Shown here: piece after piece, positions 2,621-48,551 of the stretch
Layout: every line of letters begins with the position of its first letter
Position numbering within the stretch: position 1 is the first letter of the stretch
DNA from: a virus
Lineage: Duplodnaviria > Heunggongvirae > Uroviricota > Caudoviricetes
IMG/VR virus record: IMGVR_UViG_2563366966_000001
Direction: 5' to 3' (one strand)
Length of the DNA: 52,942 nt
The notes under the pieces: model-generated
The model's database searches: none
What the model saw: the letters and a program-made list of their open reading frames with translations, nothing else
Told to the model about the DNA's origin: nothing
Program-made: the position numbers and the translations under genes

Positions 2621-3211
2621 ATGTCTCAAATTTTTGCTTACTGTCGGATATCAACGCTGGATCAGACCACCGAAAATCAACGCCGGGAAATCGAAAGTGC
2701 AGGTTTTAAAATCAAACCTCAGCAAATAATCGAAGAACACATTAGCGGCTCAGCAGCAACCAGTGAGCGTCCTGGTTTTAACCGGTTGCTTGCTCGCCTG
2801 AAATGTGGTGATCAATTGATTGTGACAAAACTGGATCGCCTTGGTTGTAATGCAATGGATATCAGGAAAACAGTGGAACAACTGACCGAAACAGGTATCA
2901 GAGTGCATTGCTTAGCATTGGGGGGCATTGACCTGACCAGTCCAACAGGAAAAATGATGATGCAAGTAATTTCAGCAGTCGCTGAATTTGAACGAGACCT
3001 TTTACTTGAACGCACTCATTCCGGGATAGTAAGAGCCCGCGGCGCAGGGAAACGTTTTGGTCGACCACCTGTGTTAAATGAAGAACAGAAACAGGCGGTA
3101 TTCGAACGAATTAAGTCAGGTGTAAGTATAAGTGCCATTGCCCGGGAATTCAAAACCTCGCGGCAAACCATTTTAAGAGCCAAAGCAAAACTTCAGACAC
3201 CTGACATATAA
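2621..3211 (+). CDS. pin: Serine recombinase, Pin/Gin/Hin-type DNA invertase
   Basis: 196-aa ORF; N-terminal resolvase catalytic motif (YCRISTLDQ) and C-terminal HTH; matches Pin-family invertases from memory. Confidence 0.9.
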
Positions 3212-3308
3212 AAAATAATCTCGGTGTGAGATGCTTTACGTCTTCCAAGCCCCCTTCCTTGCCGTAAATGGAAAGATACATCTAATTATAGAATTTATAT
3301 GTTTTACC

Positions 3309-3884: not shown

Positions 3885-6800
3885 TATGCAAGCCTCACAA
3901 TATAGTTAAATGCGATGTTTTTGACGGTGTTTTCCGCGTTACCAGCAGCGTTAACGGTGATGGTGTGTCCATGTGAACCAATCGCAACGGAGTGCGTATG
4001 AGCACCAATACCGACAGTATGTGCATGTGCGCCTGCGCTTGCAGCAGTGCCGGACAGCGAGTGGGTATGAGCACCATCTGATGATGTCTTCCCTGCATTA
4101 CGAGTCTGGCCACTACCGCTTGTTGTGCTCATAATCCCCGCGCTTAGATTTGAAATCGCGGTATAACCATTAGGGAAAATGCTCGTGTTCGTGCCACCAA
4201 ATGCACCGGAACTCTTGTGTTGGTGCGCACCGGCACTATTTGCGGTCCCGCTAATACTATGGGTATGCGCCCCGGTGTTATTCGTGGATTTGGTTCCGTA
4301 ATCAAACGACGATGTGGTTTTCGTCCCCAAATCCGTACTGGATGCGCTGGCGCTGTGGGTGTGCGATTTAATGCCGTCCTGTTCCTGAGATAATACGGCC
4401 CGACCACTGGCGGGCTTGCCCTTAATCGTCCAGCCACGCATATCAGGGATCACGCCTGACGGATAAGCAACTGCAAGTTTCGGGTATGCAGATTTGTCAA
4501 AAGTCTGCCCCTGCATCAGGGCATAACCAGACGGAACGGTATCTGATGGCCACGGGATTGGTGCACCGACTGGATAAAACTCTGCAGGAGGATGAGCCGA
4601 GGTGTAAAGCTGCGCCCACGGCGACCAGTTTGCGTCGGTCGTATCCCGTCGTGAACGAATAAATGCCGGAGCATGAGCACCGCTTGTACCACTCCAGCCG
4701 ATGAGTAACTCACCTTCGCCAACGGCTGTCATCCCTTTCAGGTGAATGATATTTCCATACGCTGTTGGATATCCGTTGTTATACACCTCGTATAACTCAA
4801 GACCTGCTGCCCCCTGCGTATTGTCTGTCAGCGCGGTTACCCGACCTTTTGAAGCCAGATTAACTGATGATACTGCTGTTCCACCTGACGGTAACGCCCC
4901 GATCTCTGATGCCGTTGGCTTATTTCTGGAGTTATAGTCCCTTCGCCAGCCAGGTGAATAATCTGTTCCGTGATTAATATAGGTAAACTGGGCGTTAGTT
5001 GTTCCACCACCAGTGGAGGTGGTCGGTGTGGTAATGCGGATCGTCATCGCTGACTTTATCCCCATTACTTCAATGACAGCTCCGGCGAGATGAATATTAC
5101 CGCAGTCAGTATCAGTAATGATTTTATTATTGCCATAAGACCAGGAACCCTTGCACATCCAGTATGGATGGTTAAATGCTCCCTGAGAATCCAGCCACTC
5201 GATAAACTGTGCAGTCGTCCAGTTTCCTGTTGTTGTGCTTACTGACCCACCGAAGGCACGGCAGGCACCAATATTTTTCGTAAAGGTATCTTTGCCAGGG
5301 ATATCCGCACCGTTCTGATCTTTCTGCAGACGTTTCTCAGCATTGTCATTGGCTGCTTTTACTGCCTTTGGTGTCGCGGCAAGCGTTTCAGACGTGCTGT
5401 TGGTCGCGCTGCTTAGCTGGATTATCCCTTTCTGTGCTGTCGTTGCATCCTGTGCGGTGTATTTCCCGTTAGCCAGGTCATACGCGGCCTTAACGGCTTT
5501 TGGTGTTGCCGCCAGTGACTCGGAAGTGCTGTTAGTCGCACTACTGAGCTGTACTATCCCCTTTTTCGTCGTGCTCGCATCCTCAAGCGCCACGGCGGAT
5601 GCAATATCCTCTGCCCGTTTTGCTGCTGTCTCGGCGCGCGTTGCTGCGGATTCTGCCGTACTTTTGCTCTGAGCTGCCGCCGTCGCACTGCCAGCAGCCT
5701 CTGTCGCCTTCGTGGATGCCGTCGTGGCGCTGCTCTTCGCTGCTGACGCTTGTCTGGTCGCCTCATCTTTTGAAGCAGACGCCGATGATGCCGATGACGC
5801 CGCCGAACTGGCTGACGATGCGGCAGCCGTTTTTGAGGATTCTGCGCTGGTTTCCGACGCTTTCGCGTTCGTTTCGGATGTCTTCGCTGCGGAAGCAGAC
5901 CTCGCTGCTGCGCTGGCCTGTTCAGTGGCTTCGCCAGCCTTCGTTGTGGCTGTTGAAGCAGACGATGCGGCGCTTTCTGCCGATTTTCCGGCGGCGGTGG
6001 CACTGGCTGAGGCCTGCCCGGCACTTGTTGACGCTGCACTGGCAGACGACGCAGCCGCTGTTTTTGAGCCTGCCGCAGCCGAGGCGCTCTGTCCCGCTGC
6101 CGTTTCAGAAGACCTGGCGTTCGTCTCTGACGTTTTTGCCGCCTTCGCGGAATTTCCTGCCGCTGTTGCCGAGGAAGCTGCGCTACTGGCGCTCGAGGAT
6201 GCGTTCGTTTCTGATGATTTTGCCGCCTCTTTTGAAGCCGACGCATCCCGGGCTGAGGTGGCAGCTTCTGACGCTTTCGTGGTCGCGGTGGATGCAGAAG
6301 TGGCTGCTGATTGTTGTGACGCTGCAGCATTCGTTTCTGACGTTTTCGCGGCACTGGCACTGGTAGCTGCCGCGCTTTTTGAGGACTCTGCAGCGGCAGC
6401 ACTTTTTGATGCTTCAGTGGCCTTTGTTGATGCCGTTCCTGCGCTGGAAGACGCTGACTGAGCCGACGAAGCGGCCTGTCCGGCTGACGTGCTGGCTGCG
6501 CGTGCTGAGCCTGCAGCATCAGTCGCATGGGTTGCCGCCTCACGGGCAGATGTGCCGGCATCGCCGGCTGACTTCTTCGCGGCTGCCGTGTTCTGTGCCA
6601 CCGCGGACGCGTTACGCGCCACCTCTTCCACCATCAGTTCAAAACGGCGCAGAGCCTCCGGACGGGCATCATCCTCCGTCATGGCACCGAGAAAATCATT
6701 CAGCGTACCGGGTCGGGAATCTTCATACACGGTGATGGTCCCGGCATGTGACGGCGGGAATCCTTCCACCAACAGAATAACGCTGTACTGACCGTACTCA

Positions 6801-22278: not shown

Positions 22279-25959
<3,681 letters not shown>

Positions 25960-25985
<26 letters not shown>

Positions 25986-26505
25986 TCAGCAACCCCGGTA
26001 TCAGTTCATCCAGCGCGGCTGCTTTGTTCATGGCTTTGATGATATCCCGTTTCAGGAAATCAACATGTCGGTTTTCCAGTTCCGGAAAACGCCGCTGCAC
26101 CGACAGGGGGATCCCGTCGAGAATACTGGCAATTTCACCTGCGATCCGCGACAGCACGAAAGTACAGAATGCGGTTTCCACCACTTCAGCGGAGTCTCTG
26201 GCATTTTTCAGCTCCTGTGCGTCGGCCTGCGCACGCGTAAGTCGATGGCGTTCGTACTCAATAGTCCCTGGCTGGAGATCTGTCTCGCTGGCCTGCCGCA
26301 GTTCTTCAACTTCCCGGCGCAGCTTTTCGTTCTCAATTTCAGCATCCCTTTCGGCATACCATCTTATAACGGCGGCAGAGTCATAAAGCACCTCATTACC
26401 CTTGCCACCGCCTCGCAGAACGGGCATTCCCTGTTCCTGCCAGTTCTGAATGGTACGGATACTCGCACCGAAAATGTCAGCCAGCTGCTTTTTGTTGACT
26501 TCCAT
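25960..26505 (-). CDS. Nu1: Terminase small subunit Nu1
   Basis: 181-aa ORF matching lambda Nu1 (N-terminal wHTH). Confidence 0.95.
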
Positions 26506-26700
26506 TGTTCATTCCACGGCCAAAAACAGAGAAAGGAAACGACAGAGGCCCAAAAGCTCGTTTTCAGCACCTGTCGTTTCCTTTCTTTTCAGGGGGTATT
26601 TTAAATAAAAACATTAAGTTACGACGAAGAAGAACGGAAATGCCTTAAACCGGAAAATTTTCATAAATAGCGAAAACCCGCGAGGTCGCCGCCCCGTAAC
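26506..26700 (-). other. cos site (cosB with R sites, cosN cohesive-end sequence at 26683..26694)
   Basis: Minus strand reads GGGCGGCGACCT followed by the AT-rich region and GGAAACGACAG-type R elements, near-identical to lambda cos as recalled. Confidence 0.85.
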
Positions 26701-26729
26701 CTGTCGGATCGCCGGAAAGGACCCGCAAA

Positions 26730-26746
26730 ATGATAATAATTATCAT
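26730..26746. promoter_or_regulatory. Near-perfect palindrome ATGATAAT-A-ATTATCAT (Fur-box-like) between cos and ynfO
   Basis: 16 of 17 positions dyad-symmetric; contains GATAAT hexamers typical of Fur boxes; about 150 bp upstream of the RHH gene. Confidence 0.3.
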
Positions 26747-26893
26747 CTGCATGTCACAACGTGCATCTACGCCATCAAACCACGTCAAATAATCAATTAT
26801 GACGCAGGTATCATATTAATTGATCTGCATCAACTTAACGTAAAAACAACTTCAGACAATACAAATCAGCGACACTGAATACGGGGCAACCTC

Positions 26894-27127
26894 ATGTCAA
26901 CGAAGAACAGAACCCGCAGAACAACAACCCGCAACATCCGCTTTCCTAACCAAATGATTGAACAAATTAACATCGCTCTTGAGCAAAAAGGGTCCGGGAA
27001 TTTCTCAGCCTGGGTCATTGAAGCCTGCCGCCGGAGACTGTGCTCAGAAAAAAGAGTTTCTTCTGAAGCAAACAAAGAAAAGAGTGACATTACTGAATTG
27101 CTCAGAAAACAGGTCAGACCAGATTGA
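26894..27127 (+). CDS. ynfO: Small ribbon-helix-helix (Arc/MetJ-like) DNA-binding protein, YnfO-like
   Basis: 77-aa ORF; N-terminal IRFPNQMIEQINIALEQKG fits the RHH beta-strand and helix pattern; position matches K-12 Qin ynfO from memory. Confidence 0.7.
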   Translation: MSTKNRTRRTTTRNIRFPNQMIEQINIALEQKGSGNFSAWVIEACRRRLCSEKRVSSEANKEKSDITELLRKQVRPD

Positions 27128-27184
27128 AGCAATTTAGATAATCGTGCAGACTACGCCCCCTCATATCACATGGAAGGTTTATCT

Positions 27185-27595
27185 ATGGATCAGGTAGTCA
27201 TTTTTAAACAAATATTTGATAAAGTTCGAAACGATTTAAACTATCAATGGTTTTATTCTGAGCTAAAACGTCACAATGTCTCACATTACATTTACTATTT
27301 AGCCACAGAGAATGTTCATATTGTATTAAAAAATGATAATACAGTGTTATTAAAGGGCCTAAAAAACATTGTGTCTGTCAAATTTTCAAAGGATAGGCAT
27401 CTTATAGAAACGACCTCTAATAAGCTGAAATCCAGAGAGATCACATTTCAGGAATACAGAAGAAACCTTGCTAAAGCAGGAGTTTTTCGGTGGGTTACAA
27501 ATATCCACGAACAAAAAAGATATTACTATACCTTTGATAATTCATTACTATTTACTGAAAGCATCCAGAAAACTACACAGATCTTACCACGCTAA
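27185..27595 (+). CDS. ydfO: DUF1398-family prophage protein YdfO
   Basis: Track ORF 27170..27595; ATG at 27185 gives the 136-aa form matching remembered YdfO/YbcV family. Confidence 0.75.
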
Positions 27596-27746
27596 ACCAT
27601 AACGTCCGGCTTCTCTCACTCCTGAGCCGGACTGCATTGGTTTAATAAAAACCATCAACAATTGTGATTTAGATATTCGGAACCATTCAAATATAACAAA
27701 ACCCCGTAAAAACGAGGTTTATGGATAAATTTTATTATTGAATACA

Positions 27747-27920
27747 TCAGATTAAATTAATCTTGACATCATAGCTTTCAAGACCCGTCATTTTTTCCCG
27801 TGCGGTAAACTGAATACTGGTAACTTCTTTCCCGGTCTTTTTCTTAAGTTCAATAATTTTTTTTGTTATATATTCAGAAATATCTGCTTCTGCTTTTGTT
27901 TTTAAGTTTTCAATATTCAT
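27747..27920 (-). CDS. gnsB: GnsA/GnsB-family protein
   Basis: 57-aa ORF not in track; translation MNIENLKTKAEADISEYITKKIIELKKKTGKEVTSIQFTAREKMTGLESYDVKINLI. Confidence 0.8.
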   Translation of the reverse strand: MNIENLKTKAEADISEYITKKIIELKKKTGKEVTSIQFTAREKMTGLESYDVKINLI

Positions 27921-28091
27921 CATTTCCTCTTTTAGTCTGTTATGACTTTCCAGTTACACAGTAAGTCGATTATATGGTGCAAACGTGTAAAAGATAAGAT
28001 GAAACATCGCAATAATCAACATACGATAGTCTAAATTTTACACAAACAGACAAAGAGAATTTTCCTGAATTATCAATGCAATAGCATCAAA

Positions 28092-28322
28092 TCAACTCAA
28101 GAGCCTTATTGCTGCTTCCAGAATTTCTTCTGAAGTAACATGTCGATCCGCGGCTACATAAATGACTTTATGATCTCCGGTCAGAGATGGAAACCCTGCG
28201 GCCATTACAGTAAGGTGTGTTTTTTCGCCATTTGGATATTCACGCATGATGGTGTTAACTCCAGTCATCGCTGGCACTACCACTGCTGGTTCAGAGTTAA
28301 AAAAAACTATGATTTTTTTCAT
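28092..28322 (-). CDS. ynfN: Cold-shock-inducible prophage protein YnfN (start uncertain)
   Basis: Track ORF 28092..28364 begins with TTG; ATG at 28322 gives 76 aa (MKKIIVFF...); a 51-aa form from ATG 28247 matches my memory of K-12 YnfN. Confidence 0.6.
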   Translation of the reverse strand: MKKIIVFFNSEPAVVVPAMTGVNTIMREYPNGEKTHLTVMAAGFPSLTGDHKVIYVAADRHVTSEEILEAAIRLLS

Positions 28323-28593
28323 GATGTTACCGTAGTATGTGAGTATCCATCGAATAGACACCAAGCAAAAAAGCTCCCGAAGGAGCCTTCATTTTCACTT
28401 TTTTAAATCCAACGACAGACGGCTGGCATTTAAGTATTGTGAAATATTATCAAATGTAATCATCATTGATTTACAAAAGATACATTTTGCCCCGAAAGGA
28501 TTCATGTCAGAAACATCAAAAGATGATGTTCTATACTGGGAACCATGACAACACGGGCATCTAAAGTGAATATGGTTTGTAATATTGTCTACC

Positions 28594-28806
28594 TCAAAGC
28601 GCCACTACATGAACAGCGGCAGGACCTTTAGGTCCGTTCTCAATACCAAATTCAACTTCCTGATTCTCAGTTAATGTTTTGAAATCGTTGCTCTGAATTG
28701 CTGAGAAATGGACAAACACATCTTTGCTGCCATCTTTCGGCGTGATGAAACCAAAACCTTTTTCAGGGTTAAACCATTTCACTAAACCAGTCATTTTGTT
28801 AGACAT
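28594..28806 (-). CDS. cspI: Cold shock protein CspI (CspA family)
   Basis: 70-aa ORF with RNP1/RNP2 motifs (KGFGFI, VFVHF). Confidence 0.9.
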
Positions 28807-29168
28807 AATTATTACCTTTTGAAGAAATTAGCCCTTGGGCAGAATGGTCCGAAAAAAAATATCAGAGAGAAAAACCAACAAGGAAATCTCAAGAGGTACA
28901 AATAATAAAATTATAACAATGACTGCTTCAGATAAATTTGTAACAAACCAGAACACCATTAACGCATGATTAACCACCCATAGCAAGGATTACTTTTGTA
29001 AAGAAAAACACAGCAATGAAAGAATAGCTTTATTTATTAATAAAACGTGTCATTCTGATTAAGACCTTTTATCTTACCCTTAAGATTTCAGGAATTTTGG
29101 CTCATGGAAGAGTCCTTTTTATTTAAATTTTACATTCCGCGATGTAAATGTTCCGATTTAATATTACC

Positions 29169-30192
<1,024 letters not shown>

Positions 30193-46687: not shown

Positions 46688-47095
46688 ATGGAAACAAAAA
46701 ATTTAACTATCGGCGAACGCATCAGGTATCGTCGGAAAAACCTCAAACACACCCAAAGGTCTCTTGCTAAAGCCCTGAAAATCTCCCATGTGTCTGTATC
46801 ACAATGGGAACGGGGTGATAGTGAACCTACAGGGAAGAACCTTTTTGCCCTCAGCAAAGTATTGCAATGCTCACCAACATGGATTCTATTTGGCGATGAA
46901 GACAAGCAACCAACACCACCTGTTGAGAAGCCAGTTGCCTTATCCCCCAAAGAACTAGAGCTCCTTGAGCTGTTTAATGCACTGCCAGAATCAGAACAGG
47001 ATACCCAGCTCGCCGAAATGCGAGCTCGAGTAAAAAACTTCAATAAACTCTTTGAAGAATTACTAAAAGCCCGTCAGCGGACAAATAAAAGATAA
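46688..47095 (+). CDS. dicA: Repressor DicA (XRE-family HTH)
   Basis: 135-aa ORF matching DicA. Confidence 0.9.
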   Translation: METKNLTIGERIRYRRKNLKHTQRSLAKALKISHVSVSQWERGDSEPTGKNLFALSKVLQCSPTWILFGDEDKQPTPPVEKPVALSPKELELLELFNALPESEQDTQLAEMRARVKNFNKLFEELLKARQRTNKR

Positions 47096-47132
47096 CATCA
47101 TCAATGAGTTATCTTTTACCACATCAATTATG

Positions 47133-47184
47133 TTAGCTATAGCATACAAAATCACTTGACCGATATGTTAGTCATGGCTAATCT
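47133..47184 (+). promoter_or_regulatory. Candidate dicB-operon promoter with two more operator-like dyads (47133..47146, 47168..47181)
   Basis: TTGACC (47156..47161)-17 bp-TAATCT (47179..47184); the dyad TTAGTCATGGCTAA overlaps the spacer and -10. Confidence 0.5.
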
Positions 47185-47261
47185 TGTTTGCATCAACACA
47201 CCGCACGGTGTTCTCAGCAAACAGTTCCGCTACCCCAGCGTTAAGGGGAAATGAGGTCAGC

Positions 47262-47417
47262 ATGGATACTATCGATCTTGGCAACAACGAATCTCTGGTG
47301 TACGGCGTGTTTCCAAACCAGGACGGCACGTTCACCGCAATGACGTATACCAAAAGCAAAACGTTTAAAACCGAAAATGGTGCCCGTCGCTGGCTGGAAA
47401 GAAACTCAGGTGAGTGA
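47262..47417 (+). CDS. ydfA: YdfA
   Basis: 51-aa product MDTIDLGNNESLVYGVFPNQDGTFTAMTYTKSKTFKTENGARRWLERNSGE from internal ATG of track ORF. Confidence 0.75.
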   Translation: MDTIDLGNNESLVYGVFPNQDGTFTAMTYTKSKTFKTENGARRWLERNSGE

Positions 47418-47418
47418 T

Positions 47419-47547
47419 ATGGATTTCGACACAATCATGGAAAAGGCTTACGAAGAATACTTCGAAGGCCTTGCCGAAGGCGAAGAAGCTCTCAGCTTCA
47501 GTGAGTTTAAACAGGCGCTTTCCAGTTCGGCAAAATCTAACGGCTGA
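47419..47547 (+). CDS. ydfB: YdfB
   Basis: 42-aa ORF not in track; MDFDTIMEKAYEEYFEGLAEGEEALSFSEFKQALSSSAKSNG; starts 2 nt after ydfA stop. Confidence 0.7.
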   Translation: MDFDTIMEKAYEEYFEGLAEGEEALSFSEFKQALSSSAKSNG

Positions 47548-47576
47548 TAAGCGAAACAGCACCGCGAGGAATCAGT

Positions 47577-47795
47577 ATGCAGAAACGAGAACCCGTCATC
47601 ATCGCGCCAGACTATACCGATGATGAACTTTATGAGTGGATGCGCCAGAAAATTAATGCAGCGCAGGATCTGAAATGGGCTAATGAAGCCAGGGCTAAGC
47701 AGGCTGAAAATCTGTCCGCTCTGGAGCAGGATATCACCAATCTGGAAAAAGCAGCGGCATTAAGCATTGCCAGAATGATTACATACCCGCGTTAG
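47577..47795 (+). CDS. ydfC: YdfC
   Basis: 72-aa ORF. Confidence 0.75.
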   Translation: MQKREPVIIAPDYTDDELYEWMRQKINAAQDLKWANEARAKQAENLSALEQDITNLEKAAALSIARMITYPR

Positions 47796-48135
47796 TAGCT
47801 AATCAACAAAGCTAAGGTTAGTAATTAAGGAGTTCTCCACGGGTGAGGTGGAGTGCGTGCGCCGGACACGGGTGCGCATCCGGAACTGACAGTTTACTGA
47901 AAGGATATTTCCCTGAAAAGTCAGACCATAACGCGAAAGCGCACGGCGAGGTAGCTGGTTCATAGATAGCCTGTCGTTAAATTTTCGTCGACCGTGCGCT
48001 TCCGGTTGTGGCAACCCGCGAAATGGCGCGGCGGTAAGTATGGCGGGGTTATTCCTTCCCCGTTGAGGACACCGGGTTGTCAGGTTGACCATACGCTTAA
48101 GTGACAACCCCGCTGCAACGCCCTCTGTTATCAAT

Positions 48136-48193
48136 TTTCTGGTGACGTTTGGCGGTATCAGTTTTACTCCGTGACTGCTCTGCCGCCCTTTTT
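48136..48193 (+). ncRNA. dicF: DicF small regulatory RNA (ftsZ-targeting)
   Basis: Sequence TTTCTGGTGACGTTTGGCGGTATCAGTTTTACTCCGTGACTGCTCTGCCGCCCTTTTT matches DicF as recalled, ending in a terminator hairpin and T-tract. Confidence 0.85.
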
Positions 48194-48362
48194 AAAGTGA
48201 ATTTTGTGATGTGGTGAATGCGGCTGAGCGCACGCGGAACAGTTAAAACCAAAAACAGTGTTATGGGTGGATTCTCTGTATCCGGCGTTAATTGTTAACT
48301 AGTTAACGTCACCTGGAGGCACCAGGCACTGCATCACAAAATTCATTGTTGAGGACGCGATA

Positions 48363-48551
48363 ATGAAAACGTTATTACCAAACGTTAATACGTCTGAAGG
48401 TTGTTTTGAAATTGGTGTCACTATCAGTAACCCAGTATTTACTGAAGATGCCATTAACAAGAGAAAACAAGAACGGGAGCTATTAAATAAAATATGCATT
48501 GTTTCAATGCTGGCTCGTTTACGTCTGATGCCAAAAGGATGTGCACAATGA
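48363..48551 (+). CDS. dicB: Cell division inhibitor DicB
   Basis: 62-aa ORF MKTLLPNVNTSEGCFEIGVTISNPVFTEDAINKRKQERELLNKICIVSMLARLRLMPKGCAQ. Confidence 0.95.
   Translation: MKTLLPNVNTSEGCFEIGVTISNPVFTEDAINKRKQERELLNKICIVSMLARLRLMPKGCAQ

Follow-up and report, generated by a model that had tools for sequence, protein, structure and literature searches.

The stretch of DNA analysed here, referred to as the window, is a 52,942-nucleotide sequence of a tailed phage (IMG/VR record IMGVR_UViG_2563366966_000001) and represents a PhiR42_1/Qin-like lambdoid prophage. This report concerns the interval from 26701 to 27595, which begins beside the cos site and carries the packaging-termination site cosQ, a Fur box, an FNR box, the small gene ynfO, a PdhR-box-like site and the gene ydfO. 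A 1.2-kb query around this interval shows 100% identity to PhiR42_1, an inducible phage, 99.1% to the Qin prophage of Escherichia coli K-12 and about 89–98% to the lambda right end, and at least part of it is matched in 4700 of 5426 complete E. coli genomes (~87%). The remainder of the window is likewise PhiR42_1-like. Useful comparators are the lambda right end (bp about 47000–48502) and the two K-12 copies of the region, Qin (nohA-ynfO-ydfO) and DLP12 (nohD-ylcI-ybcW-ybcV-bor). The segment 26500–27130 is 93–98% identical to lambda, and a gap-free alignment that covers Nu1, cos, both regulator boxes (Fur and FNR) and the first ~50 codons of ynfO shows ~97–100% identity among the window, lambda, Qin and DLP12; past this point, identity to the window persists only in Qin. 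Mean column identity was 98% in a 400-bp alignment (A1) and 93% in a 640-bp alignment (A2).

We interpret the interval as the cosQ-side accessory region of a lambda-family prophage, assembled from separable and mostly known parts and not constituting one module, and we put the probability of this reading at roughly 0.6. Among the parts, a Fur operator attached to the cos end appears to be the sole element of the region that has not been described previously.

The cos site is of the lambda type. The 12-nt cohesive-end sequence cosN, AGGTCGCCGCCC (26683–26694), is the reverse complement of lambda's GGGCGGCGACCT and is identical to lambda in both A1 and A2, while window position 26695 corresponds to lambda bp 48502, where the match to lambda ends. 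The cosQ heptamer, AGGACCC (26718–26724), is the reverse complement of GGGTCCT and stands at the lambda spacing, with cosB and Nu1 adjacent to the site. We take the exact heptamer and its lambda coordinates, 48473–48479, to be those of Wieczorek and Feiss (2001). The heptamer is invariant in all of the cos-anchored loci collected, even where homology stops straight after it. On sequence grounds, cosQ and cosN are shown to be packaging signals. In the literature cosQ is described as 7 bp long, highly conserved and required for packaging termination (PMC4669245).

This assignment changes how two neighbouring elements are read. An earlier sequence-only reading of the window had named GGAAAGGA (26714–26721) as the ribosome binding site of a 20-codon open reading frame (ORF); the sequence is indeed present, but it overlaps cosQ. 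The ORF, MIIIIICMSQRASTPSNHVK, also exists on the plus strand at 26730–26792, yet it has no family match and does not behave as a gene. In lambda and Qin it starts with GTG where the window has ATG, and five of its 20 residues differ. Many residues of the peptide vary among the ~120 cos-anchored sequences compared (Y7C, M8I, I3M, S13W/C, T14R/K, P15Q/S), most of the substitutions are non-synonymous, and where the downstream DNA differs the frame runs on into an unrelated tail, 17 or 51 residues long. Generic sigma-70 scans predicted no plus-strand promoter upstream of it. The only constant part is the N-terminal 'MI(I/M)II', which is the Fur box read as codons, and since this part alone is conserved, the mini-ORF is, from its pattern of variation, best regarded as an accidental frame of an AT-rich palindrome. 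A 47-amino-acid (aa) ORF on the minus strand (26645–26788) runs across cosN and cosQ, and PhiR42_1 has the same ORF annotated as a hypothetical protein (CDS 3146–3289); this is almost certainly a spurious call. The corrected annotation thus has cosQ in place of a ribosome binding site and drops the mini-gene.

Just beyond cosQ lies a 17-bp palindrome, ATGATAATAATTATCAT (26730–26746). It had been called near-perfect, a description that falls short, for the 8-1-8 inverted repeat is perfect. The resemblance to a Fur box proposed for it is confirmed: the inner 15 bp, TGATAATAATTATCA (26731–26745; lambda bp 48452–48466), which lie 6 bp beyond cosQ, match the Fur 7-1-7 consensus TGATAATnATTATCA exactly, this is the only match in the 52.9 kb, and none of 100 dinucleotide shuffles produced one. 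When the site is compared with the classical 19-bp Fur consensus GATAATGATAATCATTATC, 16 of 19 positions agree, against 0.01 matches expected. The site therefore shares with the operators of the E. coli Fur regulon both the exact 7-1-7 unit and most of the 19-bp box, but while classical Fur boxes are an overlapping pair of 7-1-7 units, this one is a single unit, and it adjoins a packaging signal and is not found upstream of an iron gene or in demonstrable overlap with a promoter. The box is present in lambda, Qin and DLP12, its arms nearly invariant while the centre base and flanks vary, so that two haplotypes can be recognized, one with centre A and flank ATG (window and DLP12) and the other with centre G and flank GTG (lambda and Qin). 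Within the class of loci that carry ynfO, the almost invariant arms are embedded in the part of the region that varies most. No published account of a perfect Fur site 6 bp away from lambda cosQ, or of a Fur box at any lambdoid cos site, was found; lambda is among the best-studied genomes, yet the operator at its right end seems to have gone without description. The nearest documented trace of such a site is one line in a supplementary table of chromatin immunoprecipitation with exonuclease treatment (ChIP-exo) data, which concerns a prophage of E. coli CFT073.

In order to see what the box travels with, other cos ends were sampled by scanning viral contigs with the cosN-proximal sequence and species-representative genomes with the cosQ-side sequence; the second scan returned mostly chance matches in GC-rich metagenome-assembled genomes (MAGs) or lambda contamination, leaving ~10 genuine diverged cos ends that were usable. 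Five downstream contexts that are unrelated to one another keep the box, with 0–2 mismatches, at a distance of 6–8 bp from cosQ, namely the ynfO/ylcI type, the CFT073 type, the type of loci L013 and L061, locus L216, and a Kosakonia prophage (L195). In the last three of these the nearest gene is directed at cos and runs in the same sense as the late operon, which leaves the box without a divergent gene to control. Three contexts are without the box (L063/L037/L085, L153 and L167). Upstream of distant DUF3950 genes, the family to which ynfO belongs, no Fur box is found, the best sites having at least 4 mismatches, and we rejected the idea that the box is a feature of that family as a whole. Because it is kept at cosQ across contexts and is absent upstream of distant ynfO homologues, the box goes with the cos end and not with ynfO.

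Our proposal for the Fur part of the region is that a single-dimer Fur operator lies beyond cosQ and is inherited together with the cos end. By analogy with the CFT073 site discussed below, Fur-Fe2+ would most likely be on the box when iron is replete. Its reach would be local and weak, damping transcription that starts in or crosses the box in either direction, including leftward transcription across cos into the terminase genes. The box is ~130 bp upstream of the likely start of ynfO transcription and is therefore too distant to be the operator of the ynfO promoter.

Published data from CFT073 bear directly on this proposal. A Fur ChIP-exo peak (P53, NC_004431.1:1424699–1424711), obtained under iron-replete conditions, lies between the terminase operon ('nohD') and divergent genes (PMC10164565). 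In the CFT073 locus of our collection (L004, NC_004431.1 1422700–1426700) the peak, at 2000–2012, falls on GTGATAATTATTCTCG, the orthologous box, which is 6 bp from cosQ and more degenerate than the box in the window. The genes on both sides of this box are derepressed in the fur mutant, with log2(delta-fur/wt) values of +2.95 for C_RS26755, +2.33 for C_RS07340, +2.13 for C_RS07370 and +1.57 for C_RS07365 (PMC10164565), and the CFT073 site would in this respect behave as a local, two-way damping site should. Binding of Fur to sites of this class is real in at least one prophage, and by analogy the window sequence may be bound as well. The cargo next to cos in CFT073 (L004 about 1650–1990 and 955–1281) includes a small secreted Cys-rich protein (MKIRNILAISLATSSFS...), a TonB-family lipoprotein and iss. 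The old locus tags C_RS07340 and C_RS26755 appear in the published Fur regulon and are gone from the current annotation.

Several observations weigh against a regulatory role of Fur here. In the same study no Fur ChIP-exo peak is listed at the Qin or the DLP12 copy in either MG1655 or W3110 (PMC10164565). Multi-mapping of reads was considered as the cause of the missing K-12 peaks and was rejected; Qin and DLP12 differ at ~9 positions around the box, and it is a poor excuse because the two copies are distinguishable by sequence. In the MG1655 fur mutant ydfO, nohQ and ybcV are unchanged, and in the W3110 fur mutant ynfO (-5.1) and ydfO (-2.0) go down, as do ybcV, ybcW and nohD, with ylcI at -3.9 and not significant (p 0.12) (PMC10164565); derepression of ynfO, ydfO, ylcI or nohA/nohD is not seen in the K-12 fur mutants. 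The derepression in CFT073 might also arise indirectly, for instance if loss of Fur induces the prophage, and a single 7-1-7 site may be bound weakly by E. coli Fur. No promoter overlapping the box is predicted consistently across contexts. The best prediction at the box, from a scan whose position weight matrix is our own approximation, is a minus-strand GTGACA-16-TATCAT in which the box's left arm forms the -10 element; this candidate for a conserved leftward promoter was rejected, since the window and L013 have it but lambda does not, and in CFT073 it is weak. The data do not support classical repression of ynfO by Fur, and no paper combining ynfO with Fur was found. A role of the palindrome as an operator specific to ynfO is likewise unsupported, with the box staying at cosQ where ynfO is replaced, lying ~130 bp away from its start, and bringing no derepression in K-12. 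The role of the box may be weak local control of transcription, an accessory function at cos, or that of a relic.

The last of these is the alternative that survives best, although we consider it unlikely. It holds that the palindrome is a relic or passenger, an AT-rich repeat that matches the Fur consensus by chance, is kept in a block of DNA that recombines with cos, and is functionless here. The two perfect K-12 copies, with neither a Fur peak nor Fur-dependent expression, are what it would predict. Conservation of the box speaks only weakly against it, because the region as a whole is highly conserved (98% in A1 and 93% in A2); among the 14 arm positions one is variable, compared with 12 among the 37 flanking positions, a difference that we estimate to be only suggestive. 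However, we calculate that an exact 14-base match is expected ~2e-4 times per window, no shuffle produced one, and Fur occupies the degenerate orthologue of CFT073 in vivo. In at least four independent mosaics, moreover, the homology breakpoints lie just distal to the box.

It is distinctly improbable, in our judgement, that the box is part of an extended cos site through which Fur acts on packaging, for example by slowing the terminase as it translocates up to cosQ/cosN, or on whichever DNA end enters the cell first, and not on transcription. This reading can point to the retention of the box in five contexts, three of them without a divergent gene to regulate, to its near-constant spacing from cosQ, and to the lack of a consistent overlapping promoter. 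The cos plasmids of the Feiss laboratory (lambda bp 48446–182) contain the box, and there is a precedent for a host cofactor at cos in the action of IHF at cosB. Against it, the three natural cos ends that are without a box indicate that the box is dispensable for packaging, the literature gives cosQ as a 7-bp element (PMC4669245), and no experiment linking Fur to lambda growth was found in literature searches aimed at this question. A variant to which we assign very little weight makes the box a conserved accessory of the cos end, with iron-loaded Fur bound 6–8 bp from cosQ affecting packaging termination as a 'speed bump' ahead of cosQ/cosN, or having an effect early in infection, that couples the phage to host iron. 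Related to it is the notion that YnfO-like DUF3950 proteins recognise packaging sites, which is raised because DUF3950 genes adjoin packaging modules in unrelated phages and, in PICI-like satellites (those resembling phage-inducible chromosomal islands), are fused to the N-terminal DNA-binding portion of a terminase small subunit (TerS).

To return to the accessory region as we read it, the control of ynfO itself appears to lie elsewhere, in a site overlooked by the sequence-only reading. The sequence TTGATCTGCATCAA (26820–26833, centre 26826.5) is a perfect FNR box, TTGAT-N4-ATCAA, and the sole exact match in the window; its centre is 67 bp upstream of the ynfO ATG. Chromatin immunoprecipitation with microarrays (ChIP-chip) gave K-12 FNR peaks named 'nohA/ydfO' and 'nohB', and purified FNR shifted the site in an electrophoretic mobility shift assay (Grainger et al. 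2007, PMC1802558). The reverse complement of window positions 26815–26838 is the exact 24-mer reported for these two peaks. A candidate -10 hexamer, GACAAT (plus strand, 26855–26860), has the geometry of an FNR class II-type promoter for ynfO; it would place the transcription start near 26868 and the FNR centre at about -41.5. We propose that ynfO is expressed from this weak promoter of its own, in the lysogen, at low oxygen. FNR binding has been shown in K-12 on the identical sequence, and activation of ynfO would be expected from the arrangement of the sites. The generic sigma-70 scans of the region found no good plus-strand promoter. A lacZ fusion in the nohA direction was low and FNR-independent (PMC1802558), which counts against a promoter responding to FNR at this site; that fusion reads the nohA direction only, ynfO being unannotated at the time (PMC1802558).

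A perfect 8-bp inverted repeat upstream of ynfO, ATCAATTA-N17-TAATTGAT (26792–26824, with arms at 26792–26799 and 26817–26824), is invariant in lambda and K-12, and its right arm overlaps the left half of the FNR box; the repeat may mark a binding site for another protein or be fortuitous. The direct repeats ATCTGCAT and TGCATCTAC were tried as YnfO operators and rejected, the first copy of each being unconserved in other phages.

Expression data are consistent with control by oxygen. The DLP12 genes ybcV and ybcW rise by 1.7–1.8 log2 units under microaerobic growth, and in the W3110 fur mutant ynfO, ylcI, ybcV, ybcW and appY drop alongside the FNR-dependent ansB. Overexpression of T4 MotB, which alters H-NS-dependent repression, raises ybcV and ybcW of DLP12 more than 1000-fold. 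FNR, rather than Fur, is the more likely direct controller of ynfO. When W3110 and MG1655 are compared, the levels of ynfO, ydfO, ylcI, ybcV and ybcW track those of appY, whose counts are ~1100 in wild-type W3110, ~55 in its fur mutant and ~35 in MG1655 (PMC10164565, Dataset 3). This tracking, a correlation only, hints at common control of an anaerobic, AppY or FNR type.

The product of ynfO (plus strand, 26894–27127) is a 77-aa protein of the YlcI/YnfO family (DUF3950) with a variable C-terminal tail. It scores 75.6 bits against PF13132 DUF3950 (cutoff 25) and 36.6 bits against NF041551 YlcI_YnfO_N (cutoff 30), and these matches, together with the DUF1398 match of YdfO, confirm both gene names given in the sequence-only reading. 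The family is tiny, a search of 1.84 billion proteins yielding 120 cluster representatives at E <= 1e-3, and it is limited to enterobacterial phages, satellites and islands. The same reading had called YnfO an Arc-like ribbon-helix-helix (RHH) protein, a claim that the core pattern and the structural model fit and that the scores leave short of significance. The conserved core, K-x-IRFPhxLIExI...NFSAWVIEACrxKL, has the pattern of an RHH domain, and in an AlphaFold2 monomer model (predicted local distance difference test score, pLDDT, 69) residues 13–18 are extended, residues 19–32 form a helix and a second helix begins at residue 37. The Arc strand and helix A align to YnfO TRNIRFPNQMIEQINIALEQKG. 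YnfO thus shares with RHH regulators and antitoxins such as Arc, Mnt, CopG, ParD and KacA a predicted strand-helix-helix core and a basic N-terminal arm, and its best structural match is the KacA antitoxin (template modelling score, TM, 0.60). On the other side, the top Foldseek matches are almost all RHH proteins (KacA, StnY/CopG, ParD2, MatP, Arc), but none is significant (E > 5); an hhalign comparison with Arc gives E = 0.014 and a probability of 3%; and a weak RHH_6 match is seen in only one of 20 DUF3950 members. The YnfO profile has a weak match in the PDB, to the CopG-family entry 9kkd (E = 0.54), and a search of the PDB with the YnfO sequence returned nothing. Unlike the known RHH regulators and antitoxins, YnfO has neither a significant sequence or structure score nor a conserved partner gene. 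It is plausible from the model that YnfO is an RHH protein, and in the cell it would probably be a dimer that binds DNA as a regulator.

The distant relatives of YnfO are found alone in islands, or in regulator-like positions in satellites resembling phage-inducible chromosomal islands (PICI), with iterated repeats upstream. These repeats (locus L126, 4546–4590; L130, about 4560–4650; L136, about 500–560) consist of two copies of TGGTACGTACCA around TATAAT, three of GTGCA(C)AAACAC, and GTGYWCATACAC repeats; such iteration suggests that the distant DUF3950 proteins are autoregulating DNA binders. In two PICI-like satellite proteins (L126 5001–5363 and L130 4714–5103; P0208 and P0190) the DUF3950 domain is joined to the N-terminal ~50 residues of a small subunit of the Terminase_2 family. 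The satellites concerned carry an integrase, an AlpA-like gene, a primase, TerS and capsid genes, and a stand-alone DUF3950 gene adjoins; the fusion could be a packaging-redirection protein or a regulator. In a neighbouring prophage with an HNH/Terminase_2 (HK97-like) packaging module, a DUF3950 gene (L126 8576–8776) lies between the lysis genes and that module, divergent from HNH. A position beside the packaging module recurs for DUF3950 genes across different packaging systems.

Downstream of ynfO on the same strand is ydfO (27185–27595 with the RefSeq start; an alternative start at 27170 gives 141 aa). Its product matches PF07166 DUF1398 with E = 1.7e-46 and 157.5 bits (cutoff 22), and 140 of 141 residues are identical to PDB entry 2HH8, a structural-genomics deposit titled 'hypothetical protein ydfO'. 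The start at 27185 has the better Shine-Dalgarno sequence (GGAAGG, 27172–77). A PdhR-box-like site, AACAGGTCAGACCAGAT (27108–27124), which was also overlooked earlier, occupies the final codons of ynfO, ahead of ydfO. In K-12 it is a genomic-SELEX (systematic evolution of ligands by exponential enrichment) site of PdhR between ynfO and ydfO, and loss of pdhR lowers expression of the DLP12 paralogues, 10-fold for ybcV and 8.9-fold for ybcW (PMC7660256). The ydfO gene responds to stresses on its own, and one paper cites YdfO overexpression as raising oxidative-stress resistance; as the reported effect is beneficial, the protein would be tolerated. We therefore see ydfO as probably regulated independently, through its PdhR box, and as an optional neighbour of YnfO and not its partner.

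The layout here, in which a small RHH-like gene immediately precedes another small, co-oriented gene at a gap of 42–57 nt, is that of type II toxin-antitoxin modules, and the sequence-only reading had suggested such a module or an autoregulated pair. The pairing is not conserved. In 69 cos-anchored loci with a ynfO-like gene, the DUF1398 gene is adjacent in 30, separated in 12 and missing in 27; in the 12 separated loci, lambda among them, it is ~650–700 bp away with the antisense gene ybcW between. A DUF1398 neighbour was never found beside the distant DUF3950 genes. PADLOC gave no defence-system match for ynfO, ydfO, gnsB or ynfN, there is no Pfam toxin match, and ydfO, unlike the second gene of a type II module, has a separate PdhR box and belongs to a family that matches no toxin. 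Because the pairing is not conserved, a ynfO-ydfO toxin-antitoxin module is unlikely. Of all the explanations weighed, the least likely is therefore the full one of the sequence-only reading, a palindrome serving as the iron-responsive operator, for Fur or for YnfO itself, of a ynfO-ydfO operon that works as an autoregulated toxin-antitoxin-like or accessory pair, with the mini-ORF as leader peptide: the Fur motif is perfect, the genes are co-oriented and often adjacent, and RHH-like folds are common in antitoxins, KacA being the best structural match, but the genes are often apart, no toxin model matches and YdfO overexpression is reported as tolerated, the box is distant from the ynfO start and persists without ynfO, the repeats upstream of distant family members are quite different, the K-12 fur mutants show no derepression and the mini-ORF is unconserved.

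If the Fur site works as proposed, the cos-proximal accessory region of these prophages would be wired to host iron through Fur and to oxygen through FNR, both of which are cues of the gut and of infection, and in pathogens the prophage cargo under Fur could include genes such as iss/bor, the TonB-family lipoprotein and the small secreted protein of CFT073. In addition, ynfO becomes a testable candidate for a small FNR-dependent regulator. The genes themselves already carry y-gene names, and nothing indicates a new kind of system.

On the other side of cos, the genes for terminase A (24060–25985) and for Nu1, the terminase small subunit and nohA homologue (25960–26505), lie on the minus strand. 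Nu1 matches PF07471 Phage_Nu1 (E = 2.4e-101) and is so annotated in PhiR42_1 and K-12; its transcription is directed away from the interval, across cosB. Past cos the gene order is ynfO and ydfO on the plus strand, followed by the minus-strand genes gnsB, ynfN and cspI and, beyond them, the lysis genes. The view that the ynfO-ydfO cassette occupies the place of lambda's bor does not hold, because lambda has homologues of both genes between bor and cos, an unannotated ylcI-like ORF and the ybcV-like (DUF1398) lambdap78, with the ybcW-like lambdap79 between them. The differences from lambda and DLP12 are that the C-terminal tails of YnfO (77 aa) and YlcI (64 aa) diverge after the RHH core, that ydfO directly follows ynfO in the window and Qin while antisense ybcW intervenes in lambda and DLP12, and that gnsB, ynfN and cspI take the place of bor. 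With gnsB at 27747–27923 and ynfN at 28092–28364, these three genes form a cold-shock-type cargo cluster. A cspA-type thermoregulator lies in the 5' untranslated region ahead of cspI (28567–28952, minus strand; Rfam RF01766, 112.8 bits against a gathering score of 78). It was the only hit of an Rfam scan of 25900–29500, which found no RNA element within the interval.

Many of the apparent homologues collected (P0014–P0120, P0253–P0353 and several of the loci L141–L197) are lambda sequence, often frame-shifted, and they sit in ENA contigs of ~3.5 kb or in genomes of unrelated phyla (Staphylococcus, Bacillus, a spider and assorted MAGs). Lambda control DNA used in sequencing is the likely cause of these spurious homologues, which inflate the apparent size and host range of the family.

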